64,000 nt of DNA from an uncultured bacterium (GTDB lineage Bacteria > Zixibacteria > MSB-5A5 > UBA10806): assembly GCA_965541585.1 (NCBI GenBank), contig CBEUCH010000007.1:113055-177054 (forward strand), given 5' to 3'. Shown piece by piece: positions 3,196 to 15,645 of this stretch (position 1 is its first letter; every line of letters begins with the position of its first letter). The translations under genes and the position numbers were made by a program. The notes below the pieces were generated by a model. That model ran no database searches. It was not told where the DNA came from and saw nothing but the letters and a program-made list of their open reading frames with translations.

Positions 3196-3386
3196 CCTCT
3201 GCAACCGGGGTTCATTCAGCGGATCGGGAATCTGGCCGCAATCAAGAAGTGGCTCGTTATAAGGCCTCAATTTCGGCGGGGGCAGACGGCACTGCCAGCG
3301 ATAGAAACGGAAAGCTTAGAATTGTGTATCTTTTTTTTCAAAAATGGATATATTTATTACAGGATACTGTATTATTGGGAGGCACA

Positions 3387-4853
3387 ATGGGTTGGATCAG
3401 CCGGATATTACCGATCGTAGGCACAATACTCCTGACATTTTCAATGGCCCACGCTCAATTTGAAGGAGCCGTCTGGGACACGCTTACAGCGGATACTCTA
3501 AGAGACGCATTGAGCAGGCAACCGTTGGCGGCCACCCCCGGAGGCCTTCATCTGACACATGCCAAAAGCCGGGGTATAGGCAATGGCTGGTCTATTCATT
3601 ACCGCTTCTTCGACATCGCAGGCGGCTGGAGCGATGATATTATTGTGGAGTCCGATCTGCCGGCATTCTCGCCGTCGATTGCGGCAAGAGAATTCGATGC
3701 TTTCAAGATCGCCATATTCTTCGATGCTTACGGCGATATTTACGGCAGTATTGCCCATTCGCCATGGGATTCGTGGGATCCTGTCAATCTCACCGATTCG
3801 CCCGCCCCTGATCTCGAGCCGACCGTGGCCGTCGATAATGAAGGTTCGGTGCACGTCGCCTGGATCACTGAAATTGATGGAGAGTACGAGATTGCCTACG
3901 GGAAAATGGAAGACGATACTCTGGTCATGGAGATAATCTATGAGTCGGAGCCCGGCCCGTATGGATCGGGAGCCGCCCCGAAGATAATCACGGTGGATAA
4001 CCTCCCACAAGTATTCTACAGGGGTGTTAATTCAGGATCTTATCATATTCATCATGCTTTCAGGGAATCGCCGGGCGCACCCTGGGAGATCGGGTTCCTC
4101 TATTCCGGTAACACCGACGATTACACCTCATCGGCGGCTGCGGATGAACTCGGAGATATCCACCTGGCGATTTCCGGCAACGAGGGTTGGGGAATGCCCG
4201 GGAGAATTTACTATACGCGGCAGGATAACCAGTCCGGACAATGGACGCCTGCCGAGCGGGCCTCGGGCTCATATTCTGTAGTCGAGGGTAGCATTGGGAT
4301 TACGGATGAGGAATCTGTTTTTATCGTCAGCGCCGGGATATCCGGGAATTTTTATACTGGCGATATATACCTCTCGAGCGGTATCGATGGCTCGTTTCAG
4401 ACGGAATTTCTGACTCATTATGAGGACTGCACCGGGCCTTCGATCGCATTTCTGCCGGGATCTGTCGGGGCTTTAGCGCTGCAAGGGATAATCGGCGAAT
4501 ATAACTCGAATAATATGGAAATTATCAGTTACAGGCCGGAAAGAACCAACACCGCGGATAGTGATCTTATGCCTCGCGGTCTCACGGCCGGTTTGAATTA
4601 TCCAAATCCATTTAATTCAAACACCATTATTATTGCGAGCGGGGAGTTCTCGGAAAGCACGCCCCTGGAGATTTTTGATCTTCTGGGACGAAAGGTGAGA
4701 ATGCTTCGAAACTTTGACGGGGACGAGAATTATATCACTTACCGCTGGGACGGTCTTGACGACAATGGCAGGGTCTGTTCAAACGGGATATATATCTATT
4801 TCATTGAGACTCGAAGCTCCTCACTCTCAGGGAAGATGACGCTCCTGAAGTAG
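3387..4853 (+). CDS. Secreted acidic protein with repeated beta-propeller-like segments and a FlgD/T9SS type A-like C-terminal domain
   Basis: GGAGG then ATG at 3387; signal peptide ending AHA-Q; repeats such as PTVAVDNEGSVHVAW and SAAADELGDIHLA; C-terminus NYPNPFNSNT..LEIFDLLGRKV..WDGLDDNG..SNGIYIY..KMTLLK. Confidence 0.75.
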   Translation: MGWISRILPIVGTILLTFSMAHAQFEGAVWDTLTADTLRDALSRQPLAATPGGLHLTHAKSRGIGNGWSIHYRFFDIAGGWSDDIIVESDLPAFSPSIAAREFDAFKIAIFFDAYGDIYGSIAHSPWDSWDPVNLTDSPAPDLEPTVAVDNEGSVHVAWITEIDGEYEIAYGKMEDDTLVMEIIYESEPGPYGSGAAPKIITVDNLPQVFYRGVNSGSYHIHHAFRESPGAPWEIGFLYSGNTDDYTSSAAADELGDIHLAISGNEGWGMPGRIYYTRQDNQSGQWTPAERASGSYSVVEGSIGITDEESVFIVSAGISGNFYTGDIYLSSGIDGSFQTEFLTHYEDCTGPSIAFLPGSVGALALQGIIGEYNSNNMEIISYRPERTNTADSDLMPRGLTAGLNYPNPFNSNTIIIASGEFSESTPLEIFDLLGRKVRMLRNFDGDENYITYRWDGLDDNGRVCSNGIYIYFIETRSSSLSGKMTLLK

Positions 4854-5967: not shown

Positions 5968-5986
5968 ACTCTTGAGGGAAAGACCA

Positions 5987-6586
5987 GTGATGAGAAAAGG
6001 CGCCGGAGAGCGCGAAGACCAGATTTTGATCGGCAAGGTTCTCGAAGGTGATACGAGGGCATTCGAGAGACTGGTAGAAAAGTATAAAAAACGGATCTAC
6101 TATCTCGCTTATAGAATGACCCGCGATCATGACAGCGCCGATGAATTAGCACAGGAGAGTTTCGTGAAGGCTTATCAGGCGATGTCGGGATTTAAACCGG
6201 GCCATAGCTTTTACACCTGGATCTACCGGATCTGTGTCAACCTCTCCATTAACTTCATCAAACGGGAGAAGCAGAATGTCTCGGCAGATTTTCTGCGTGA
6301 TTCGGGAATCGCCATTGACCGTAGTAGTGAATCGAATCAGCTTGAACGTATGATAGCCTCAGAGCAGGCTGCCATCGTCAAGGAAGCGCTGAACGGACTT
6401 CCCGCGGATCAAAAGGCGGTATTTATACTTAAAACTTATGACGATATGTCTTATGAACAGATGGCGGAGGTCATGGATTGCTCCATGGGCACAGTGATGT
6501 CGCGGCTTTTTCGCGCACGTCACAAGCTCAGAAAAGCGCTTGAAATGACTGAGTCCGAAAAGGATTTTGACGATGAGAGAATGTAG
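5987..6586 (+). CDS. ECF RNA polymerase sigma factor (RpoE/SigW-like)
   Basis: Region 2 AFERLVEKY..ADELAQESFVKAY..FYTWIYRICVN; region 4 SYEQMAEVMDCSMGTVMSRLFRAR. Start is GTG 5987 or ATG 5990. Confidence 0.92.
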   Translation: MMRKGAGEREDQILIGKVLEGDTRAFERLVEKYKKRIYYLAYRMTRDHDSADELAQESFVKAYQAMSGFKPGHSFYTWIYRICVNLSINFIKREKQNVSADFLRDSGIAIDRSSESNQLERMIASEQAAIVKEALNGLPADQKAVFILKTYDDMSYEQMAEVMDCSMGTVMSRLFRARHKLRKALEMTESEKDFDDERM

Positions 6587-7559
6587 ATATAAAAAGAGAC
6601 TTCAAATATATCTCGATGGCTGGATGGACGATAAGGAGGCCAGACGCCTCGAGGTGCATCTCAAGCGGTGTTCCGATTGCCAGACCGAGATGGTCGAGTT
6701 GGAGGAAGTCGCGTCGGCGGCTCTGGAGATAGTGGATCAGGCGCCCGATTTCAATTACTGGAAAAATTTCCCCGCCCGCGTTCTTAACCGTATTATTTCC
6801 AGAGACGTAAGCCCTTATGAGCAGAAGCAGAAGCCGGCGAGAAGCCTTCGGCTGAAGATCGGGTCATATACCGTGGCGATCACGGCGCTGGCGGCCGCTA
6901 CATTGCTTATCTTTAATTACGCGAGCTGGTCGCCTGATGTCCCCGACGCCGGGGTTCGAGATGTAGTGGGAGTCGCCGACCAGATTGCCGAAACGGAGTT
7001 AGCAGAGCCGACAATATTTACCGCAGAGGAGTCTGATAGACCGACTGTTAATGATGAATCGAAGAGCATATCTGCCGGGCAGCCAGGCTTGCCGGTGGAT
7101 GAAAAGCCATTGCCGAATATGGTGCTGAACTCCGTAGTGGGTAACGAGATAGAGGAAAAACCCACCCTGCCTTCGCAGGCCGAATTGGCGTCGCAATCTG
7201 ATTATGATCTCAGTGCGGTTTTCCGGAGACCGGCCTTATTTGGACGAGCGTCATTGAAGCTTGATGACGATTATAATTTTCTCGACAGACTGATGACCGC
7301 TTATAGCGGGAGGGTGGCCAACAGCTATAGTATCAGTCCAGCAGTATTGGCCGAGCGGATTCTTTCGGGCTATACCTTTCGAGATATCAACAGGATGGAT
7401 AATGGTATTTACGGGCCACTGGATATCGGGCCGTTCCCCGGTTTGAACGGCGACCGTTTGTCATCGGGATGGGGATATTTGAGTCTCCCGGACGATACGT
7501 CAAATACTGAAGAGCTGCGGAAATATCTGATTGAACTCGAATTGATGCAGGCTAAATGA
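6573..7559 (+). CDS. Membrane-anchored zinc-binding anti-sigma factor (zf-HC2)
   Basis: C...YLDG...HLKRCSDC (HxxxCxxC), one hydrophobic segment YTVAITALAAATLLIFNY; overlaps the sigma stop codon. Confidence 0.8.
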   Translation: MRECRYKKRLQIYLDGWMDDKEARRLEVHLKRCSDCQTEMVELEEVASAALEIVDQAPDFNYWKNFPARVLNRIISRDVSPYEQKQKPARSLRLKIGSYTVAITALAAATLLIFNYASWSPDVPDAGVRDVVGVADQIAETELAEPTIFTAEESDRPTVNDESKSISAGQPGLPVDEKPLPNMVLNSVVGNEIEEKPTLPSQAELASQSDYDLSAVFRRPALFGRASLKLDDDYNFLDRLMTAYSGRVANSYSISPAVLAERILSGYTFRDINRMDNGIYGPLDIGPFPGLNGDRLSSGWGYLSLPDDTSNTEELRKYLIELELMQAK

Positions 7560-7584: not shown

Positions 7585-7613
7585 TTGATAAAGAACCCAT
7601 AAAAATATATATT
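7585..7613 (+). promoter_or_regulatory. Putative sigma70 promoter of the pgs operon
   Basis: TTGATA (7585-7590), 17 nt, TATATT (7608-7613), followed by GGAAGGA before TTG 7640. Confidence 0.55.
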
Positions 7614-7639
7614 AACCGCTTGTCATATTTGGAAGGACT

Positions 7640-8824
7640 TTGATCTTTCGTATGTGGGTAATAGTCGTCTTACTTTTAATTCTGGTTGTCTACGGTTTCT
7701 GGGAGTTCCGCAGTCACCAGTTTCATTTGAATCAAATTCCGATGAGGATTCATATCAACGGGACTCGCGGGAAATCGTCGGTGGCGAGGTTCATAGCGGC
7801 CGGGCTAAGCGGCGACGGTCGAAAGGTATTTGCCAAAACAACCGGAACTAAGGCGCGGATGATTTTTGTTGATGGCAATGAAGTTCCTGTATTACGAGTG
7901 GGGAGGGCAAACATCATTGAGCAGACCAGGATCGTAGCCAGGGCCGCGAAGCAGGAACCGGATTATTTGGTGACCGAATGTATGGGGGTGCAGCCGCACT
8001 TGCAGGAATTACTGGAACGACAATTCATTAGATCCCATATAGGCATCATAACAAATGTCCGGGCGGATCATCTCGATAACATGGGGCCAACTTTGAGAGA
8101 AGTGGCGCATTCCATGTCAAATACCATACCGCCCAACGGCTTGTTGTTTACTGCGGAAGACAAATACCTGGATATCCTCTCGGAGCGAGCGAAGGCGGTA
8201 GGGGCTGAGGTTATCACAGTCAACGACGCCGAGATCACAGATGAGGAAATGCGGGGATTTTCTTACCTGGCTCATAAGGAAAACGTCGCCATCGCCCTGT
8301 CGGTTGTCCAGCATCTTGGCGTCGATAGGGAGAAAGCCTTAAAAAGCATGCATCATGCTTCGCCCGATCCAGGAGTTGTAAGGCGTTATGAGATCGAGAT
8401 TCATGACAAGAGAATAGAATTTGTTAGCGCCTTTGCGGCCAACGATCCCGACAGCCTGCTTGCTATCTGGGATCTGTTAAAGATCCACCATGAGCCGGGA
8501 AAGACTCTGATAGTGTTGGTGAATTCCAGGAAAGACCGTATCCAGAGGGCCGAACAACTTGGCGAATTCATTACATCTCATCTGGATGCGGATTATTATG
8601 TAATTACCGGCGAATATACCCGGCCGTTAATGGCCAGAGCTATCGTCTGCGGGATGCCGCATAACAAGATCGAGGATCTCGGCGGCAGGTCTCTGGAGGC
8701 GATCTTCAATAGCGTTGTCAGTCTGGCCTCGGAAAAAACCCTGGTTTTCGGCATCGGCAACATGGTTGGATTCGGCGAGGAGATCGTGGAGTATTTTATG
8801 GAAAGGGGACGGGAGATTGTCTGA
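7640..8824 (+). CDS. pgsB: Poly-gamma-glutamate synthase PgsB/CapB
   Basis: N-terminal TM helix; RIHINGTRGKSSV P-loop; AKTTGT, ANIIEQ, ECMGVQP, ITNVRADHLDNMGPT, AFAANDPDS and GIGNMVG signatures. Confidence 0.93.
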   Translation: MIFRMWVIVVLLLILVVYGFWEFRSHQFHLNQIPMRIHINGTRGKSSVARFIAAGLSGDGRKVFAKTTGTKARMIFVDGNEVPVLRVGRANIIEQTRIVARAAKQEPDYLVTECMGVQPHLQELLERQFIRSHIGIITNVRADHLDNMGPTLREVAHSMSNTIPPNGLLFTAEDKYLDILSERAKAVGAEVITVNDAEITDEEMRGFSYLAHKENVAIALSVVQHLGVDREKALKSMHHASPDPGVVRRYEIEIHDKRIEFVSAFAANDPDSLLAIWDLLKIHHEPGKTLIVLVNSRKDRIQRAEQLGEFITSHLDADYYVITGEYTRPLMARAIVCGMPHNKIEDLGGRSLEAIFNSVVSLASEKTLVFGIGNMVGFGEEIVEYFMERGREIV

Positions 8825-8831
8825 AATATTG

Positions 8832-9281
8832 ATGATGCAATCGGTAGGGCTCGGCCTGGTGGTCAGTCTGGTATTTTCAGAAACGCTCGGCCTTGCTGCC
8901 GGAGGTATGGTCGTCCCGGGATATATGGCGCTGATGATTCATGATCCCGGCCGGATCGTGGGTACTGTCCTGGTAAGCCTGTTAACATATTATTTTATCA
9001 GGCTGCTTTCCAATTACATGTTTATTTATGGCCGGCGTCGCACAGTCGTTATCATAATAGTGGGATTCCTTTTCGGCTGGCTTTCGAGAGAATTTCTCAT
9101 GATCGGGCTCCCGGATGGTCAGACGCTGGAGTTTCAGGCGATAGGATATATTATTCCCGGTCTTATAGCCAACTGGATGGAGAGGCAGGGAGTCCTGGAA
9201 ACGATCACCACCATGATCGTAGCGGCAGTGGTTGTCAGGTTGCTTCTGATGATATTTATGGGAGGCAGGGTATTGGCATGA
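8832..9281 (+). CDS. pgsC: Poly-gamma-glutamate biosynthesis membrane protein PgsC/CapC
   Basis: GLVVSLVFSETLGLAAGGMVVPGYMAL, IYGRRR, IGYIIPGLIANWMERQG. Start ATG 8832 (alternative TTG 8817). Confidence 0.93.
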   Translation: MMQSVGLGLVVSLVFSETLGLAAGGMVVPGYMALMIHDPGRIVGTVLVSLLTYYFIRLLSNYMFIYGRRRTVVIIIVGFLFGWLSREFLMIGLPDGQTLEFQAIGYIIPGLIANWMERQGVLETITTMIVAAVVVRLLLMIFMGGRVLA

Positions 9282-10447
9282 GACCGCGCGGTCGCAACCC
9301 GTCAAAACGGCTGCTGATAGCCGTGGCTTTGTTTTCGATTTTGATGTTCTATCTGGCCGAGGGCACAAAGCAGCAGAAACAGGCGCCATATTGGGATCTC
9401 AAAAACCGGGTCGCCAATCTCGATCAGAGGGCCCAGGATTTAATACGTCAGAAAATCGAAGATCTCGGTATCCCGATCGATTTCGAGAACGATCCGAATG
9501 GGACAGGACTGATAGGTGAGCAGTATACACTGATTACTACAGACCGTGGCGAGTTGAGGAGCAAATTGATAGCCACCAACCCTAATTTCGGTGCGGCGAT
9601 GGTTGCGATGTTCAAAAAGAGCAATCTAAAGCGGGGAGATCTGATAGCCGTCAGCATAACCGGCTCTTTCCCCGGAGCAAATATTGCCCTCTACAGCGCC
9701 TGCGAGGTCATGGGCATCGAACCGATCGTGATAACCTCTCTGGGAGCGTCCAACTGGGGGGCCAACCATCCCGACTTCACCTGGCTCGACATGGAACGGA
9801 CTCTATACGAGGCGAAATTGATCTCCTTCCGTTCAGTTGCCTCCTCGCTTGGTGGCGGTACCGATAACGGCCGCGGGCTTTCGATTCAGGGTCGCCGGCT
9901 GCTTCTGGACGCGATAACGCGCAACGATATCGAATTGATTTTCAGCGGTAACATAGAAAACATCATGGAGGCAAAAGGTTCACTCAAAAGCAATATTAAC
10001 AGGCGAATGGAGATATATACCGAGAAGAGCAAAGGGCGTCGATACGCGGCTTATGTCAATATTGGCGGCGGGCTGGCATCGCTGGGTTCGTCGCAGAACG
10101 GAAGACTCATCCCATCCGGAGTCAATTTCGATCTCCACCGCAGGAATTTTCCAGCGCGCGGCGTTATTAACATGATGGCTGAAAGAAAAATCCCCGTCAT
10201 TCATTTGTTGCGTCTGGGTGAAATCGCCAGCGAGTACGGTCTTCCGATTGATGTCGTTCCCGCACCGATTGTTGGTGAAGGGCCTATCTTCTATCGCGAT
10301 GAGTATTCGCTGTCCTCTACGATAATTTATGCTGGAATTTTGATCGTGTTCGTAGTCGCTGCGATCAGAATTGATATTAAATACTATCTAAAAAAGCAAA
10401 CCCAAATACTGTTTCCTCCGCGGAGGAACGATGATCCGGAGCTGTGA
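9278..10447 (+). CDS. pgsW: Poly-gamma-glutamate system protein (PgsW-type)
   Basis: DPNGTGLIG..ITTDRG.L.SK..TNPNF, GSFPGANIA, SLGASNWGAN, SLGGGTDNG, VNIGGG; N- and C-terminal TM helices; coupled to pgsC by an ATGA overlap. Confidence 0.85.
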   Translation: MRPRGRNPSKRLLIAVALFSILMFYLAEGTKQQKQAPYWDLKNRVANLDQRAQDLIRQKIEDLGIPIDFENDPNGTGLIGEQYTLITTDRGELRSKLIATNPNFGAAMVAMFKKSNLKRGDLIAVSITGSFPGANIALYSACEVMGIEPIVITSLGASNWGANHPDFTWLDMERTLYEAKLISFRSVASSLGGGTDNGRGLSIQGRRLLLDAITRNDIELIFSGNIENIMEAKGSLKSNINRRMEIYTEKSKGRRYAAYVNIGGGLASLGSSQNGRLIPSGVNFDLHRRNFPARGVINMMAERKIPVIHLLRLGEIASEYGLPIDVVPAPIVGEGPIFYRDEYSLSSTIIYAGILIVFVVAAIRIDIKYYLKKQTQILFPPRRNDDPEL

Positions 10448-10448
10448 G

Positions 10449-11354
10449 ATGAAAAAGTTCAGCATTCTGATTCTGGCGATTTCGTTCTTGTTCAACGGTC
10501 AGCAAGTGCTGGCGCAATCCAAAACCAAATACAGGGCTTTCAAGCCGTCAAAAGCCGGCGACAGCGTATTCTTGAAATCTGGTACAAGAAGCCTCAGGTA
10601 CTATGTCCTGGAGGCAGGTAAAACAATGTATCTTGAAGTTACCGGCCCGACCCGGATCAAGCTTCGCAGCCGGGCAAGCCTCGGCCTTGTCGATTCGGGG
10701 GATTATGATCTGTATGTCTGGGAAGGCAAAGAGTTGATTGCCAGCCGAAAAGTGGGGACCTCGAAATCCAAGCTGATAATTGATGGCACAAGTGAATATG
10801 TCGGGCTGGCGAGGGATATCTTTTTCAAAGTACCCCGGGGGACGCATACCTATAGCATCTCAGCAAGATCCGAGAAAATCGATAAATTTTATCTGCGGTT
10901 CTATCGGCAGAAAAAGAATAAGAAGAAAGCCACCTATATTCCATACCGACCGTACGATTACTCTAAAGAGGCTAAACTAAAAACCCAAAAATCAGAAATC
11001 CCATATTATCTGGTTGAGAGGGATGGTGGCGTCAGCCTCAAGGTGATTGGCCCAACCAAAATCGGCATTTTTTGCCGCGCTAATTTCGATGCCACCGTCG
11101 AGGATAAATCAAAATTCGCTCTTGGAGTATACGAGAAGGGGAAATCGATCGAAATGTTCACCGGAATTGCGAAAAAGTCTAAAAAGCTGGCATTTTCAGA
11201 CCTGCCCGGTCTAATACCGTCGACTTTGCATAAGTTTTATCTCGATGTTCCCACCGGGGAGCATATCTATGAGTTTAAGAAAGTAAACTCGCCTGCGCCG
11301 AATCTGGCGGTGCGGTTTAAGATTCTGGAAAATACCCTTGGTAAGAAGAGATGA
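10449..11354 (+). CDS. Secreted, strongly basic protein with an internal two-fold repeat; hypothetical
   Basis: Signal peptide MKKFSILILAISFLFNGQQVLA; repeats YYVLE..LEVTGPTRI..VPRGTHTY and YYLVE..LKVIGPTKI..VPTGEHIY; starts 1 nt after the pgsW stop. Confidence 0.75.
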   Translation: MKKFSILILAISFLFNGQQVLAQSKTKYRAFKPSKAGDSVFLKSGTRSLRYYVLEAGKTMYLEVTGPTRIKLRSRASLGLVDSGDYDLYVWEGKELIASRKVGTSKSKLIIDGTSEYVGLARDIFFKVPRGTHTYSISARSEKIDKFYLRFYRQKKNKKKATYIPYRPYDYSKEAKLKTQKSEIPYYLVERDGGVSLKVIGPTKIGIFCRANFDATVEDKSKFALGVYEKGKSIEMFTGIAKKSKKLAFSDLPGLIPSTLHKFYLDVPTGEHIYEFKKVNSPAPNLAVRFKILENTLGKKR

Positions 11355-12424
11355 CCGGACCGCAATATCCGAATAAGATCGACTACGTACCTTTTCTGAC
11401 GCTGATTCTGGCGTTGCTCGTCTGGTCGCCTGCCGGTGCTCAAAAAAAAGAGAAGGCCCCTGAGCCCCGAAAGCTGCAGATGCTTTTTTTAGATGCCAGG
11501 ATGGAGCTGACATATGACGACAACATAATAAATTATTCCGATGCCGATCTCGATCTTTACAGTGATAACGCCCGGCCCGATAAGTTCCTTATAGAATCGG
11601 AAGATGATTGGATCATAACCAGCCGAATCGAATCGCGGCTTAAGGGGGGATTCATCTCGGGTAGAACCGCCTGGATAGATCTTAATTTTACTAATTATTT
11701 CTACGTCAGAAATGAGGTTCGTCGCTACCAGAAATACGGTTTATCCGGCCGACAATATTTCATGCGTGGAGGGTATGCTGAGATTGAGTATTTTTATATT
11801 CCGGATTATTATTATCGTAACCTCTATAATGATTCATACATCGAAGCCAGCTTTTCCAAGCATTTCCTGAAAGCTGAAGTGGGGTTTAATTTGCTGCCAT
11901 CGCTTAAGGGCGATATCTCGTATCGGTTCCAGAGCAAAAGCTTCAACGAGGAGGTGCGGGAACGCGATTTGACAGTCAACGGTGTGAGGCTCGATGGAAT
12001 CTGGAAAGCATCGAAGAAGTTCAAATTCTGGGCTTATTATAGTTTTGAGCGGGCCATAGCAAGGGGGGCGGATGATCCCGATCCTGATATCAAGGATGTC
12101 TCGTATGATGCCTGGGGAATAACTCTGGGGAGCAGGCATTATAGCCCGTATCTGCGCAGATTGAAGCCTCAGCTGGTTCTCTCGCTTCAATATCGAAAGA
12201 TCAAATTCCAGACGACGAAATACCGAGATATCTATAGATTCCTCCGCCGGGATAACAATTACGAATTCAGGATCGGTACCGCCTGGCAGCTTCTCTATAA
12301 TGTTGGCCTGGATATCGATTACAGGCTGCAGGCGAAGCGTTCGGATATTTCTGATCCCCTGGCGAAAAGCCTGCTGGAATACGACTCCAATTCCATATCA
12401 TTCGAATTTAAAAGAAGATTCTAA
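11351..12424 (+). CDS. Predicted outer-membrane beta-barrel protein; hypothetical
   Basis: Signal-like segment ending AGA-Q; YDDNI motif; many amphipathic Tyr/Arg-rich strands; C-terminal Phe (SISFEFKRRF); ATGA overlap with the upstream gene. Confidence 0.7.
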   Translation: MTGPQYPNKIDYVPFLTLILALLVWSPAGAQKKEKAPEPRKLQMLFLDARMELTYDDNIINYSDADLDLYSDNARPDKFLIESEDDWIITSRIESRLKGGFISGRTAWIDLNFTNYFYVRNEVRRYQKYGLSGRQYFMRGGYAEIEYFYIPDYYYRNLYNDSYIEASFSKHFLKAEVGFNLLPSLKGDISYRFQSKSFNEEVRERDLTVNGVRLDGIWKASKKFKFWAYYSFERAIARGADDPDPDIKDVSYDAWGITLGSRHYSPYLRRLKPQLVLSLQYRKIKFQTTKYRDIYRFLRRDNNYEFRIGTAWQLLYNVGLDIDYRLQAKRSDISDPLAKSLLEYDSNSISFEFKRRF

Positions 12425-12431
12425 AAGTCGC

Positions 12432-12460
12432 TTGACCGGAAGAGTCGAAGCGGGTATAAT
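12432..12460 (+). promoter_or_regulatory. Near-consensus sigma70 promoter upstream of pcm
   Basis: TTGACC (12432-12437), 17 nt, TATAAT (12455-12460). Confidence 0.7.
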
Positions 12461-12484: not shown

Positions 12485-13180
12485 ATGACTATTTTACTGG
12501 CTGTATTAATGATGTTTCCAAAACCACCGGATAGTCCCGACTACCATAAGCGGCGTCTGGGGATGGTGGAACACCAGATAGTGGCGCGCGGGGTTTCTGA
12601 CAATAATGTCCTGAATTCCATGAGAGATGTACCGCGCCATCTTTTTGTCCCGGAAGGTCTGCGAACGAGCGCTTACGACGATAGTCCGCTGCCGATCGGA
12701 TCGGGCCAGACCATCAGCCAGCCGTATATTGTTGCCCTGATGACAGAACTCTTAAAACCCGATTCCGCAGATGTGATCCTCGAAATCGGCACCGGCTCTG
12801 GCTACCAGGCGGCTGTCCTGGCTGAGATCGTCGACACGGTTTACTCAATCGAAATTATCTGCGAGCTTCAGGAAAGAGCTGATTCCACGTTGACGGCTCT
12901 CGGATATACGAATGTCCATACCCGTTGTGGTGACGGCTATGGCGGCTGGCCGGAGGCGGCGCCATTCGACGGCATAATTGTTACGGCGGCGCCGGAGAAG
13001 GTGCCGAGGCCGCTTTTAGAGCAACTCAAAGACGGCGGCCGACTCGTAATCCCTGTGGGGGACATGATTCAATTCCTCGAGGTCCACACCAGGCGGGGAG
13101 GAAAATTCACTAAAGAGCGGAGTGTACCGGTGAGATTCGTTCCCATGACAGGCAAGACGGAGGAGGAAGCCGATGAATAG
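12485..13180 (+). CDS. pcm: Protein-L-isoaspartate(D-aspartate) O-methyltransferase
   Basis: VPRHLFVP, AYDDSPLPIGSGQTISQPYIVA, ILEIGTGSGYQAA, APFDGIIVTAA, GGRLVIPVG, VRFVPM. Confidence 0.95.
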   Translation: MTILLAVLMMFPKPPDSPDYHKRRLGMVEHQIVARGVSDNNVLNSMRDVPRHLFVPEGLRTSAYDDSPLPIGSGQTISQPYIVALMTELLKPDSADVILEIGTGSGYQAAVLAEIVDTVYSIEIICELQERADSTLTALGYTNVHTRCGDGYGGWPEAAPFDGIIVTAAPEKVPRPLLEQLKDGGRLVIPVGDMIQFLEVHTRRGGKFTKERSVPVRFVPMTGKTEEEADE

Positions 13181-14210
13181 AAAGCCGCTATTAGTGCTTT
13201 CAGGCGCACTATTGATTCTGGCATCATGCATATCACATGATGTGGAGTTCGAGGGCAAAACCGTCATCAGCTCCGACGGAAAGATTCGCAGGTCGGGAGA
13301 GCTTAAGATAAGCCTTTCGGGTGACAGGGATGTTGAGAAAGATCTATCCCATGCGATGAAGTTTTATACCGATAATTTCGTACCGCCCGATTCAGATTTA
13401 TTCGAGATTCAACATACGTTCATCGACAGCGTCTTGACTATAACATGGACCGGCGAGATAGATTTAGCCGACTTGCCGATTTCGGATTATACGCATCGTA
13501 TCGGCGACGGCCCTGCAGCAAGCAATAAAATCAGTCTGCAGAAAAAAAGCCGGTGGTTTTACAATGACTTTAGCTATACCGAGATTTACTCCGATCCGGT
13601 CGATACGGTGAAGTTTTATCCCCTGGTCCAGGATGCATTCTCAAAAGCGTCGGATGATATTATGAATCTTATGCCGATGGAAGGGCTTAGAGACCGTCAG
13701 GGAGCAAGAGATCTCCTGGGAGAAATAGAGACTGTGGCCGGTATAGACCTGCTCCGGGCATTTATGGCGTATCCTCGTCGAATGGACAGCCTATCCGAGG
13801 AGCACGAGCATTATGTTTATATGGTTGCCGATAGCCTGGCTGCTTTCGCCGGCGTCAAGCTGGATCCCGATTCTCTGAGCAGCTTGCTGGGGTCAGTATA
13901 CGACGCCGTATGGGATACTCTTTTGTCGGACCATCCGGGTTTGTTCGGCAGTTACGGAATTGTAGAGCCCGAGGAGCACAGATTTAAGATCGAGATTGTC
14001 TATCCCGGCTGCCTTTCCAGCAGCAACGCCGACAGCACTTTTGGAAAGGCAGGCATCTGGATTTTTGATAATCTCGATTTCTTCGCCGGCGAGAAGAGGA
14101 TTGAATTAACATGCAGAATCTGGTCGTGGGTCAATGTGGCTATTACGGTGGTGGTGATCTTGATCGTGCTGGCCGTTATATTATGGCCCATAAGGAGGAA
14201 GCGCTCATAA
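13173..14210 (+). CDS. Hypothetical lipoprotein with an additional C-terminal TM anchor
   Basis: Lipobox ILAS-C; C-terminal hydrophobic helix followed by RRKRS. Confidence 0.6.
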   Translation: MNRKPLLVLSGALLILASCISHDVEFEGKTVISSDGKIRRSGELKISLSGDRDVEKDLSHAMKFYTDNFVPPDSDLFEIQHTFIDSVLTITWTGEIDLADLPISDYTHRIGDGPAASNKISLQKKSRWFYNDFSYTEIYSDPVDTVKFYPLVQDAFSKASDDIMNLMPMEGLRDRQGARDLLGEIETVAGIDLLRAFMAYPRRMDSLSEEHEHYVYMVADSLAAFAGVKLDPDSLSSLLGSVYDAVWDTLLSDHPGLFGSYGIVEPEEHRFKIEIVYPGCLSSSNADSTFGKAGIWIFDNLDFFAGEKRIELTCRIWSWVNVAITVVVILIVLAVILWPIRRKRS

Positions 14211-14226
14211 GGTCGCTCTGAATCTG

Positions 14227-14252
14227 TGCAACCAGGATGACTGCGAATCGTA
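14227..14252 (+). promoter_or_regulatory. Putative SigW-like ECF promoter upstream of the PspC-domain gene
   Basis: TGCAAC (14227-14232), 16 nt, CGTA (14249-14252), versus the B. subtilis SigW consensus TGAAAC-N16-CGTA. Confidence 0.55.
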
Positions 14253-14285
14253 GAAGAAGATGCAAATATATCGAGGGAGAATGAT

Positions 14286-14723
14286 ATGACCAAAAAACTC
14301 TACAGGTCCAGAACCGACAGCATGATAGCGGGCGTCTGCGGCGGGCTGGCCGAATATTTCGATATCGACGCTTCATTGGTTCGGGTCGGGGCGGTGCTTT
14401 TTACGCTGGCCTGGGGATCAGGCCTTCTGGCCTACGTGATACTCTGGCTGGTGGTTACTCAGAAACCACTGGAGTCGTCGGTGACGGAGAGCGAAGGCGA
14501 GCAAAAAGCGACGGATGAGGCAAGCGAGCCGGATAAACTGGAGAGAGATAAGGGCATTATGTTCGTGGGGATAATCCTCACGGTTCTGGGAGCCTTATTG
14601 CTTATGAATAACTATATATCCTTTGCCTGGTTGTCATTTCGCAGGCTCTGGCCGCTTTTGATTATTTTCATTGGACTTATGATCATTATGAAAGGGTCCG
14701 GCAGCAGGGGCGATGAGAGTTAG
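14286..14723 (+). CDS. pspC: PspC-domain protein fused to a LiaF/LiaI-like TM hairpin
   Basis: KKLYRSRTDSMIAGVCGGLAEYFDIDASLVR (PspC); C-terminal GIILTVLGALLLMNN..LWPLLIIFIGL. Confidence 0.85.
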   Translation: MTKKLYRSRTDSMIAGVCGGLAEYFDIDASLVRVGAVLFTLAWGSGLLAYVILWLVVTQKPLESSVTESEGEQKATDEASEPDKLERDKGIMFVGIILTVLGALLLMNNYISFAWLSFRRLWPLLIIFIGLMIIMKGSGSRGDES

Positions 14724-15645
14724 CTCGATCAGATGGGGCGTTATCTGGGTGGGGATCGGTTTTTTCTTTCTGGCCATTAACCTTGAGACGCTGGACAGCC
14801 TTGTTTTCCCCAGGCTTTTTTCTCTCTGGCCGGTTCTTCTGATTGCCGTCGGCGTTGAGCTGATTTTCAGAAAAACCAAATTCTATTTTTTTGCGCTTCT
14901 CTCGCCGCTTCTGATAGCCGGCGCCTTCGTACTTGCGGCATCTCATAAGAGCGGGCCCGGTTGGGACTTCGAAGGATTCTTACGAAGCTGGTCCTGGCGA
15001 TACGAGGGTGAAAAAATCGATCTGGTTGAGATTCCTCTTGACGACGCCATTGATACCGTCGATATAGTCCTGGATTGTGGTCCCGTCGAATTCGCATTCC
15101 AGTCTGTTCCCGGGAGGCTTTTCTCTGCGGAAACCAGGTATTATAAGAGAGGTCCGGTCATCTCTCATCGGAGAGAAGGCGAAGTGGAGTTTATCAGGTT
15201 TGAAGATCGCGAAAAACCCGGGTGGAGCTTACTTAATATAGTGAGATCGGCGCGGCAAACCGATTTTAAAATCCCCGGCCGATTGCCTCTCAAAATGGAC
15301 ATTTCGACCGAAGCCGACTTCCCCGATCTCAATTTCTCGAATATTCGACTTGTTGATCTGGAATTATATGTCAGATCGGGCGAGGTAGCGTTACGGTTGG
15401 GCGATCTGGAGGATTCGGTGAAGGTCGAGATCTCCGGCAAAACCGGCGAGCTTTCGATAATAATCCCATCCAACCTCGGCCTGCAGATTACTGGAGATCC
15501 CGGCAGGCTCGACGATGCGCTGGCGGAGACCGACCTGGTAGAATTTCCCGGAGGTTATCATTCTGATGATTTCGGCGAAGCGGAACAGAAGGTATATATA
15601 TTGATAGACGCGAGAGTAAACGAGGTTTCTATCCGCCGGAACTAG
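14713..15645 (+). CDS. LiaF/LiaI-like membrane protein with a C-terminal beta-rich extracytoplasmic domain
   Basis: WGVIWVGIGFFFLAINL..LWPVLLIAVGVELIF TM module; overlaps the pspC stop. Confidence 0.65.
   Translation: MRVSSIRWGVIWVGIGFFFLAINLETLDSLVFPRLFSLWPVLLIAVGVELIFRKTKFYFFALLSPLLIAGAFVLAASHKSGPGWDFEGFLRSWSWRYEGEKIDLVEIPLDDAIDTVDIVLDCGPVEFAFQSVPGRLFSAETRYYKRGPVISHRREGEVEFIRFEDREKPGWSLLNIVRSARQTDFKIPGRLPLKMDISTEADFPDLNFSNIRLVDLELYVRSGEVALRLGDLEDSVKVEISGKTGELSIIIPSNLGLQITGDPGRLDDALAETDLVEFPGGYHSDDFGEAEQKVYILIDARVNEVSIRRN

Follow-up and report, generated by a model that had tools for sequence, protein, structure and literature searches.

The window analysed here is a 64,000-nt stretch of DNA from an uncultured bacterium of the Zixibacteria (GenBank assembly GCA_965541585.1, contig CBEUCH010000007.1, positions 113,055 to 177,054 of the forward strand), and close homologues that bear a source name are labelled Zixibacteria. 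It carries, at 7640..12424 on the + strand, a unit in which pgsB, pgsC and pgsW, the genes of a poly-gamma-glutamate (PGA) system, run into two further genes, called gene 4 and gene 5 below (Table 1). The unit is real: five coupled open reading frames (ORFs) lie on the + strand where an earlier note, made from the sequence alone, had placed them. That note described the junctions as 1-nt gaps or ATGA overlaps, which holds for pgsW/gene 4 (1-nt gap) and for pgsC/pgsW and gene 4/gene 5 (ATGA overlaps) but not for pgsB/pgsC, where the genes either overlap by 8 nt (TTG start at 8817) or are separated by 7-10 nt (ATG at 8832 or 8835). The unit had also been given its own promoter and a new one behind it. 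Both promoter-like sites, at 7585 and 12432, are intergenic and are the two best of the region, and the downstream one likely marks the 3' end of the unit. However, the region holds 10 such sites against 9.0 +/- 3.9 in shuffled sequence, which is no excess, and no terminator was found 3' of gene 5 in a scan of the region, so the ends of the operon can only be inferred.

Table 1. The five-gene pgs unit and the promoter candidates that border it, in window coordinates.
Feature	Position	Strand	Basis
Sigma-70-like promoter candidate TTGATA-17-TATATT, 5' of pgsB (putative)	7585..7613	+	10/12 matches; intergenic
pgsB/capB, PGA synthase, Mur-ligase type	7640..8824	+	TIGR04012, 446 bits (cut-off 222.7); motifs
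pgsC/capC, membrane subunit	8817..9281	+	TIGR04011, 133 bits (cut-off 96.45); PF14102, 128 bits (cut-off 27); TTG start
pgsW, poly-gamma-glutamate system protein	9278..10447	+	TIGR04332, 320 bits (cut-off 100); hydropathy
Gene 4, signal peptide and two predicted jelly-roll repeats; likely periplasmic adaptor	10449..11354	+	
Gene 5, signal peptide and predicted 14-stranded outer-membrane beta-barrel; likely polymer exit pore	11351..12424	+	
Near-consensus promoter candidate TTGACC-17-TATAAT, for the next gene, pcm	12432..12460	+	11/12 matches

The first three genes are a complete pgsB-pgsC-pgsW cassette, in order and translationally coupled. PgsB keeps its ATP-ligase motifs (GTRGKS at residue 41, ECMG at 113 and TNVRADH at 138), pgsC adjoins pgsB, and pgsW follows directly. 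PgsW has hydrophobic segments at residues 10-26 and 343-359, on either side of a large domain that is probably periplasmic. As in the Bacillus PgsBCA(E)/CapBCA(D)E systems, PgsB and PgsC are encoded by orthologues in the same order. The locus differs from those systems by lacking an adjacent capD and by carrying pgsW, gene 4 and gene 5 instead, in a genome without capA. The earlier remark that capA is missing now extends beyond the locus, since no match to its family (PF09587) was found in this 98%-complete genome by a search that was positive in 7 of 14 control genomes. For capD the remark stands for the locus, where an ORF and Pfam scan revealed no CapD/GGT, but not for the genome, which has a single GGT-family gene on another contig. 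Furthermore, BamA is present in the genome; the source organism is therefore a diderm and, unlike Bacillus, has an outer membrane (OM).

Profile libraries name only three genes for the pgsBCW cassette, and genes 4 and 5 are extra here. The cassette splits into one clade that carries genes 4 and 5 (clade A, which includes our query) and another (clade B, with Cetobacterium as an example) that carries TRAP-like, AstE-like, DUF6305 and often GGT genes in their place. Neither gene 4 nor gene 5 reached the cut-off of any Pfam or NCBIfam family, the closest being a weak BBP2_2 match of gene 5 (15.7 bits vs 23.7, E 0.007), and profiles of PgsW, gene 4 and gene 5 run against the sequences of solved structures produced no match below E 0.06.

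Genes 4 and 5 are tightly linked to pgsBCW. Among 151 genomes of the source phylum, pgsW was found in 25 and gene 4 in 19, directly after pgsW in all 19. Gene 5 came next after gene 4 in 17 of 18 relatives, the contig of the remaining one stopping inside gene 4. Strong gene 5 matches were confined to 18 genomes, all within the 19 with gene 4, and two pgs-free genomes gave weak partial matches only. We also scanned a genome collection with PgsW and analysed the best 80 of the 417 loci with a PgsW relative; these are the loci nearest to our clade-A query, so that other clades are under-sampled, some genomes of the source phylum are repeated, and one pair is identical. Gene 4 was present in 74 of these 80 loci, gene 5 in 59 and both in 58. 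Of the other 22 loci, eleven carried gene 4 and ended within 600 nt of it, five had gene 4 only, one had gene 5 only, and five had neither, so that pgsW is a more constant companion of gene 4 than gene 5 is. Source labels included Zixibacteria, Eisenbacteria, Ignavibacteria, Marinimicrobia, Cloacimonadota, Fermentibacteria, KSB1, Nitrospirota and Auribacterota. Some of these labels are wrong; a genome labelled Puniceispirillum, for instance, falls in the 79-genome phylum of genome G155, and phyla are therefore designated below by a member genome. Bacillota, Pseudomonadota, Planctomycetota, Synergistota and Archaea lay outside the sampling.

The same association was observed in other phyla. In the phylum of G155, pgsB was found in 75 genomes, gene 4 in 75 and both in 74, and 69 of 78 gene 4 matches lay at most 3 kb downstream of pgsB. 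Four of the other nine were checked and had pgsW upstream, and three of the nine were second copies. All 30 gene 4 loci examined in this phylum had pgsW upstream, and 28 had gene 5. In the 12-genome phylum of G489, pgsB occurred in 11, and seven of eight loci fetched showed the full order, the contig of the eighth coming to an end. Such near-universal presence of pgsB in two phyla (75/79 and 11/12) is unusual for a capsule locus. In the phylum of G488, four of 301 genomes had gene 4, exactly the four with a clade-A pgsB, while four others with a distant pgsB lacked it. In the phylum of G154 (201 genomes), pgsB was found in three: one with the full unit, one with pgsBCW in which neither gene was found, and one with pgsBC. 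Where the operon was broken, the genes were often kept elsewhere in the genome (gene 5 in G157 and G444, both genes in G1004 and G1006). In genomes without pgsB, gene 4 turned up just once, in a fragmented case. A plasmid search with PgsW returned one record, a clade-B locus. Judged by gene content and order, genes 4 and 5 are thus a dedicated module of the clade-A pgsBCW system.

The earlier note had expected both genes to be absent from monoderm pgs loci. As a control we used the phylum of G152 (251 genomes), in which BamA was not found in either of two genomes tested. None of the 15 pgsB loci fetched there, G152's own excluded, carried pgsW, gene 4 or gene 5, as expected, and CapA was encoded in 11 of the 15, ten of which also had GGT. 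Gene 4 occurred in a single genome of the 251, on a likely misbinned contig of G152 that is identical to one in another bin. Apparent monoderm carriers were rejected. A genome labelled Dormiibacterota has BamA. A genome labelled Solirubrobacteraceae has no BamA, and its 3464-nt contig is identical to one in a bin labelled Eisenbacteria (L096 / L097), a duplication that is likely a binning error.

Gene 4 encodes a secreted protein by its signal peptide, and its mature chain (residues 23-301) holds 56 K/R against 28 D/E, exactly the hand count made earlier. Only 2 of 1778 ORFs of at least 250 aa in the genome equal its net charge per residue. The internal duplication that had been noticed was recovered as well, since the two halves align at BLASTP E 1e-9 with 23% identity. 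Relatives of gene 4 form a wide unnamed family of 588 clusters at 50% identity (E <= 0.001). A model built from 141 sequences is all-beta except for the signal helix and consists of two jelly-roll beta-sandwiches (predicted local distance difference test score, pLDDT, 94.2), with the best fold matches to domains of the carbohydrate-binding type (8pvs, Z 10.6; CBM51, Z 9.5-9.7) and to BcsB (Z 9.0). Across the 141 relatives, R75 is conserved in 99% and R210 in 98%, and the positions of R150 and R289 are basic in 97% and 89%; these arginines are matched between the two repeats, as the pairs R75/R210 and R150/R289. The claim that gene 4 is very basic, including a QKKNKKK stretch, holds for the family in part: 124 of the 141 relatives are net basic (median +13, range -8 to +45), whereas a linker of the QKKNKKK type is kept in just 29. 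A hydrophobic N-terminus is present in 137 of the 141 proteins and a lipobox-like motif in nine. Two members of the family (P0179 and P0187) have three repeats rather than two, which may suit a wider periplasm.

The proposal that gene 5 encodes a barrel is supported by its model, which predicts an OM barrel of 14 long strands (pLDDT 86.8). Its best fold matches are CymA (Z 23.8, root-mean-square deviation 3.3 over 273 residues) and OmpG (Z 21.2), both 14-stranded monomeric channels, followed by PgaA (Z 14.9), PelB (Z 14.1) and BcsC (Z 13.7). Gene 5 shares only 5-9% identity with CymA and OmpG and differs from them in being tied to pgs genes and in having conserved loop motifs of its own. It had been called Arg/Lys/Tyr-rich with a terminal Phe; the C-terminal Phe and the abundance of Tyr were verified, but the net charge is ordinary (54 K/R vs 47 D/E, with 260 of 1778 genome ORFs as high). 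Residues N58, D249 and R299 are invariant and D86, R156, D293 and D301 nearly so; all of these sit together at the barrel end that would be extracellular by the usual topology rule. Weak profile matches in the gene 5 family (E <= 0.05) were to BBP2_2 in 6 of 83 members and to SlipAM in 1 of 83, and clusters bearing these domains are among its language-model neighbours. One genome (L037 / L050, G125:C4:1713791-1714751) has gene 5 broken into two reading frames by a frameshift or an assembly error.

Natural fusions point to where these proteins act. Fusions of PgsW and gene 4, found in three protein clusters of 37-51% identity, join a whole or partial PgsW, a further hydrophobic segment and a whole gene 4. 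A single assembly error can be dismissed for one of the clusters, whose four members come from three sources. A gene-4-type domain precedes the first strand of the barrel in 12 loci, mostly across a short linker, and a separate gene 4 is retained. The ten of these loci that are rows of the PgsB tree share one 13-row branch, so they may represent one or two events. Both types of fusion would set the gene-4 domain on the periplasmic side, between PgsW in the inner membrane and the barrel, and no other evidence speaks as strongly for a bridge, or against a role at the surface or as cargo.

We therefore favor, at a probability of about 60%, a model in which a dedicated conduit made up of PgsW, gene 4 and gene 5 exports PGA across the periplasm and the OM. 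It builds on the observed gene identities, linkage, co-retention after operon break-up and fusions and on the predicted folds; binding of PGA, contact between the parts and secretion of PGA are putative. From what is known of the families, PgsB would ligate glutamate with ATP at the inner membrane face, and the chain would cross via PgsC. The periplasmic domain of PgsW would then take over the chain, in the position that CapA has in monoderm loci. The predicted jelly-rolls of gene 4, placed by the fusions, would connect PgsW with the barrel at its periplasmic mouth, and their conserved arginines may guide the polyanion as the CBM-like domains of BcsB guide cellulose. Finally, the chain would leave through the barrel, where the conserved loops may gate or hold it. 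Somewhat better than even are the chances of a broader statement, that PgsW, gene 4 and gene 5 are a trans-envelope secretion channel for a non-ribosomal polyamide, near-universal in several little-studied diderm phyla.

This arrangement resembles synthase-dependent export, in which a periplasmic scaffold and an OM barrel export alginate, cellulose and poly-N-acetylglucosamine (PMC9603273); another paper describes BcsB as guiding the cellulose chain through the periplasm (PMC13721041). As in the AlgK/AlgE, PgaA, BcsB/BcsC and PelB systems, a single operon encodes an inner-membrane synthase, a periplasmic guide and an OM barrel, the guide and the barrel are co-inherited with the synthase, as linkage and fusions indicate, and BcsB appears among the fold matches of gene 4, as PgaA, PelB and BcsC do among those of gene 5. 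By contrast, the polymer would here be a polyamide made by a Mur-type ligase, and genes 4 and 5 have neither a tetratricopeptide repeat (TPR) scaffold nor a sequence match to a solved structure. The earlier idea of a cationic chaperone and a porin for PGA is thus upheld as to a dedicated module with a signal peptide and a predicted OM barrel, but its likeness to AlgK and AlgE is not supported in the form proposed: gene 4 is predicted to be all-beta and lacks TPRs, and gene 5 has 14 predicted strands, where an AlgK/AlgE-type system would be expected to have 16-18, and by strand parity a near-neutral lumen. PgaA has 16 strands and WzpX/S/B have 18 (PMC9603273). Gene 5 also differs from the BBP2_2 (PF10082) and SlipAM (PF04575) barrels, which it approaches by weak profile matches of its family and as language-model neighbours, in falling below the BBP2_2 cut-off, in giving no SlipAM match itself, and in having neither an outer-membrane polysaccharide export (OPX) partner nor a TPR region. 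By the tests run, genes 4 and 5 lie outside the AlgK/AlgE, PgaA, BBP2_2 and Slam families.

Several genes recur near pgs loci. The source genome encodes a true PorU (687 bits), and some 182 of its ORFs end in a type IX sorting-like tail (G000:C11:28244-31459, genome-wide, and 3249-4853 of the window), which makes a type IX secretion system likely for the lineage. Among the best 80 of the 417 loci, genes for gingipain-like C25 peptidases lie at most 6 kb away in 20, from several lineages (L119:5924-8929, L077:403-4179 and L107:6858-9829, for example); those scanned are not the type IX sortase PorU, as they scored at most 87 bits against a cut-off of 420. A gene for an LVIVD beta-propeller lies within the same distance in 22 of the 80, mostly right after gene 5 (L075:5420-6487, L122:9200-10234, L130 and L251, for example), and accompanies gene 5 when gene 5 leaves the operon; it is possibly a sixth component of the system, although the locus in the window has none. 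Large CapA-like proteins are encoded directly upstream of pgsB at L094:1333-4299 (an MslH-like match with a type IX tail) and L074:1244-4141 (PF09587). Clade-B loci of the source phylum open with an unnamed ORF whose C-terminus is an amphipathic strand ending in Phe, upstream of pgsBCW (L043:1-1194, L045:3-1100, L046:16351-17001, L047, L048 and L049), followed by TRAP-like permease, AstE-like, DUF6305 and GGT genes. This ORF is a candidate for a second, unrelated OM channel of a PGA system, perhaps one for recycling. A gene of about 640 aa upstream of clade-B loci, whose C-terminus had suggested a barrel, proved to be GGT. In the window, the unit is preceded by genes for an extracytoplasmic function (ECF) sigma factor-like protein and a zinc-finger anti-sigma protein (5972-7559) and followed by pcm, a lipoprotein-like gene and a PspC-like gene (12485-15645), a setting kept in close families only.

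A number of observations weigh against the export conduit. A PgsB tree with 114 rows unites every locus that carries gene 4 or gene 5 in a single clade of 87 rows (Shimodaira-Hasegawa-like approximate likelihood-ratio support, SH-aLRT, 99); the other 27 rows have neither gene. The module therefore has a single origin, and its absence from monoderms is no independent test of the OM idea. Furthermore, diderms also have clade-B pgsBCW loci that lack genes 4 and 5 (six in the source phylum, four in the phylum of G488, and Cetobacterium), and genes 4 and 5 are thus not a general diderm route. Within clade A, neither gene was found in G984 and G1005, gene 4 was not found in G1007, and gene 5 was not found with a narrower profile in G153, G156, G158 and G159, all of these being incomplete genomes. 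The Z scores of the gene 4 model fit a common fold and show no function: CBM51, CBM27, CBM35 and CBM36 match it at Z 8-10.6 but with 6-16% identity and no Pfam or PDB sequence match. The extreme basicity of this gene 4 is lineage-specific. The lumen of gene 5 is not clearly electropositive: strand parity, as an estimate, places 20 K/R and 18 D/E inward, and by the same count 44 of 67 relatives are net positive, with a median of +2 and a range of -7 to +10. In gene 5, many of the conserved positions are acidic ones in loops, located at the inferred outer mouth and not in periplasmic turns. PGA itself is a putative product of clade-A PgsBCW, named from family knowledge. Finally, one report describes PGA in the supernatant of E. 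coli with only Bacillus PgsBCAE (PMC7490850), and capABC in E. coli is noted in another (PMC5542703); a dedicated barrel is therefore not strictly required for some release.

Some of these features would suit a role in surface retention, in which the chain crosses the OM by another route and the barrel and gene 4 hold or organize it there as a capsule, replacing anchoring by CapD. The invariant barrel residues at the inferred extracellular mouth and the near-neutral lumen agree with such a role, as does the distribution of GGT, which accompanies 10 of the 15 monoderm loci and the majority of the clade-B loci that were examined, whereas GGT/CapD is not adjacent in loci with genes 4 and 5. The precedent would be Wzi, a barrel lectin of group 1 capsules (PMC9603273). 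However, a surface lectin has no need of a gene-4 domain on the periplasmic side of PgsW and the barrel, where the fusions put it, and the closest folds, CymA and OmpG, are open channels; we regard surface retention as unlikely. Less likely again is that clade-A PgsBCW makes something else, for example a short or tethered polyglutamate on an envelope molecule or an anchor for type IX-secreted proteins, which genes 4 and 5 would bring to the OM. The near-universal pgsB of two phyla suits a core function of the envelope better than a variable capsule, and the nearby C25 and LVIVD-type genes, together with PorU and the 182 ORFs with a C-terminal-domain-like tail in the source genome, could be read in the same sense. 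On the other hand, the neighbouring C25 proteins score far too low for PorU, neither neighbour occurs at the locus in the window, and PgsB stands at twice its equivalog cut-off with its motifs kept.

Two further possibilities appear highly improbable. Gene 5 could be a Slam/type XI-like translocon for the gene 4 protein, and this cargo would then bind PGA outside the cell. Slam barrels have 14 strands, and the SlipAM and BBP2_2 clusters near gene 5 in language-model space and the one SlipAM match in the family lean this way. Yet gene 5 lacks an N-terminal TPR region in its model, a lipobox-like motif is rare in gene 4 proteins, gene 4 is kept together with pgsW in more loci than with gene 5, and natural fusions attach it to PgsW, following a membrane segment, or to the N-terminus of the barrel. 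Alternatively, the barrel could import glutamyl oligomers for uptake or recycling, with gene 4 as a periplasmic binding protein, an idea to which the two closest folds give some color because CymA and OmpG are stand-alone uptake channels. Here the chances are just as slim, as the unit has no hydrolase or inner-membrane importer, gene 4 has a jelly-roll and not a solute-binding-protein fold, and it follows pgsB so closely across genomes.

We found no published account of genes 4 and 5 or of an OM route for PGA in a literature search that covered mostly abstracts and listings. Two papers provide the context: PMC3815933 cites Fusobacterium nucleatum as the first producer of PGA among Gram-negative bacteria, and PGA capsule genes are stated to occur in most phyla (PMC5542703), the capsule model in the latter having no OM component. 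Genes 4 and 5 are a real, conserved and undescribed two-gene module that adds two new protein families, and the locus offers a concrete, clonable five-gene candidate for PGA export in diderms. If the conduit exists, synthase-dependent export would extend from polysaccharides to a polyamide, and engineered Gram-negative hosts might be made to secrete PGA better. Furthermore, PGA coats would be far commoner in two-membrane bacteria than the Bacillus-centred literature suggests, and a core envelope trait of several uncultured phyla would have been identified.

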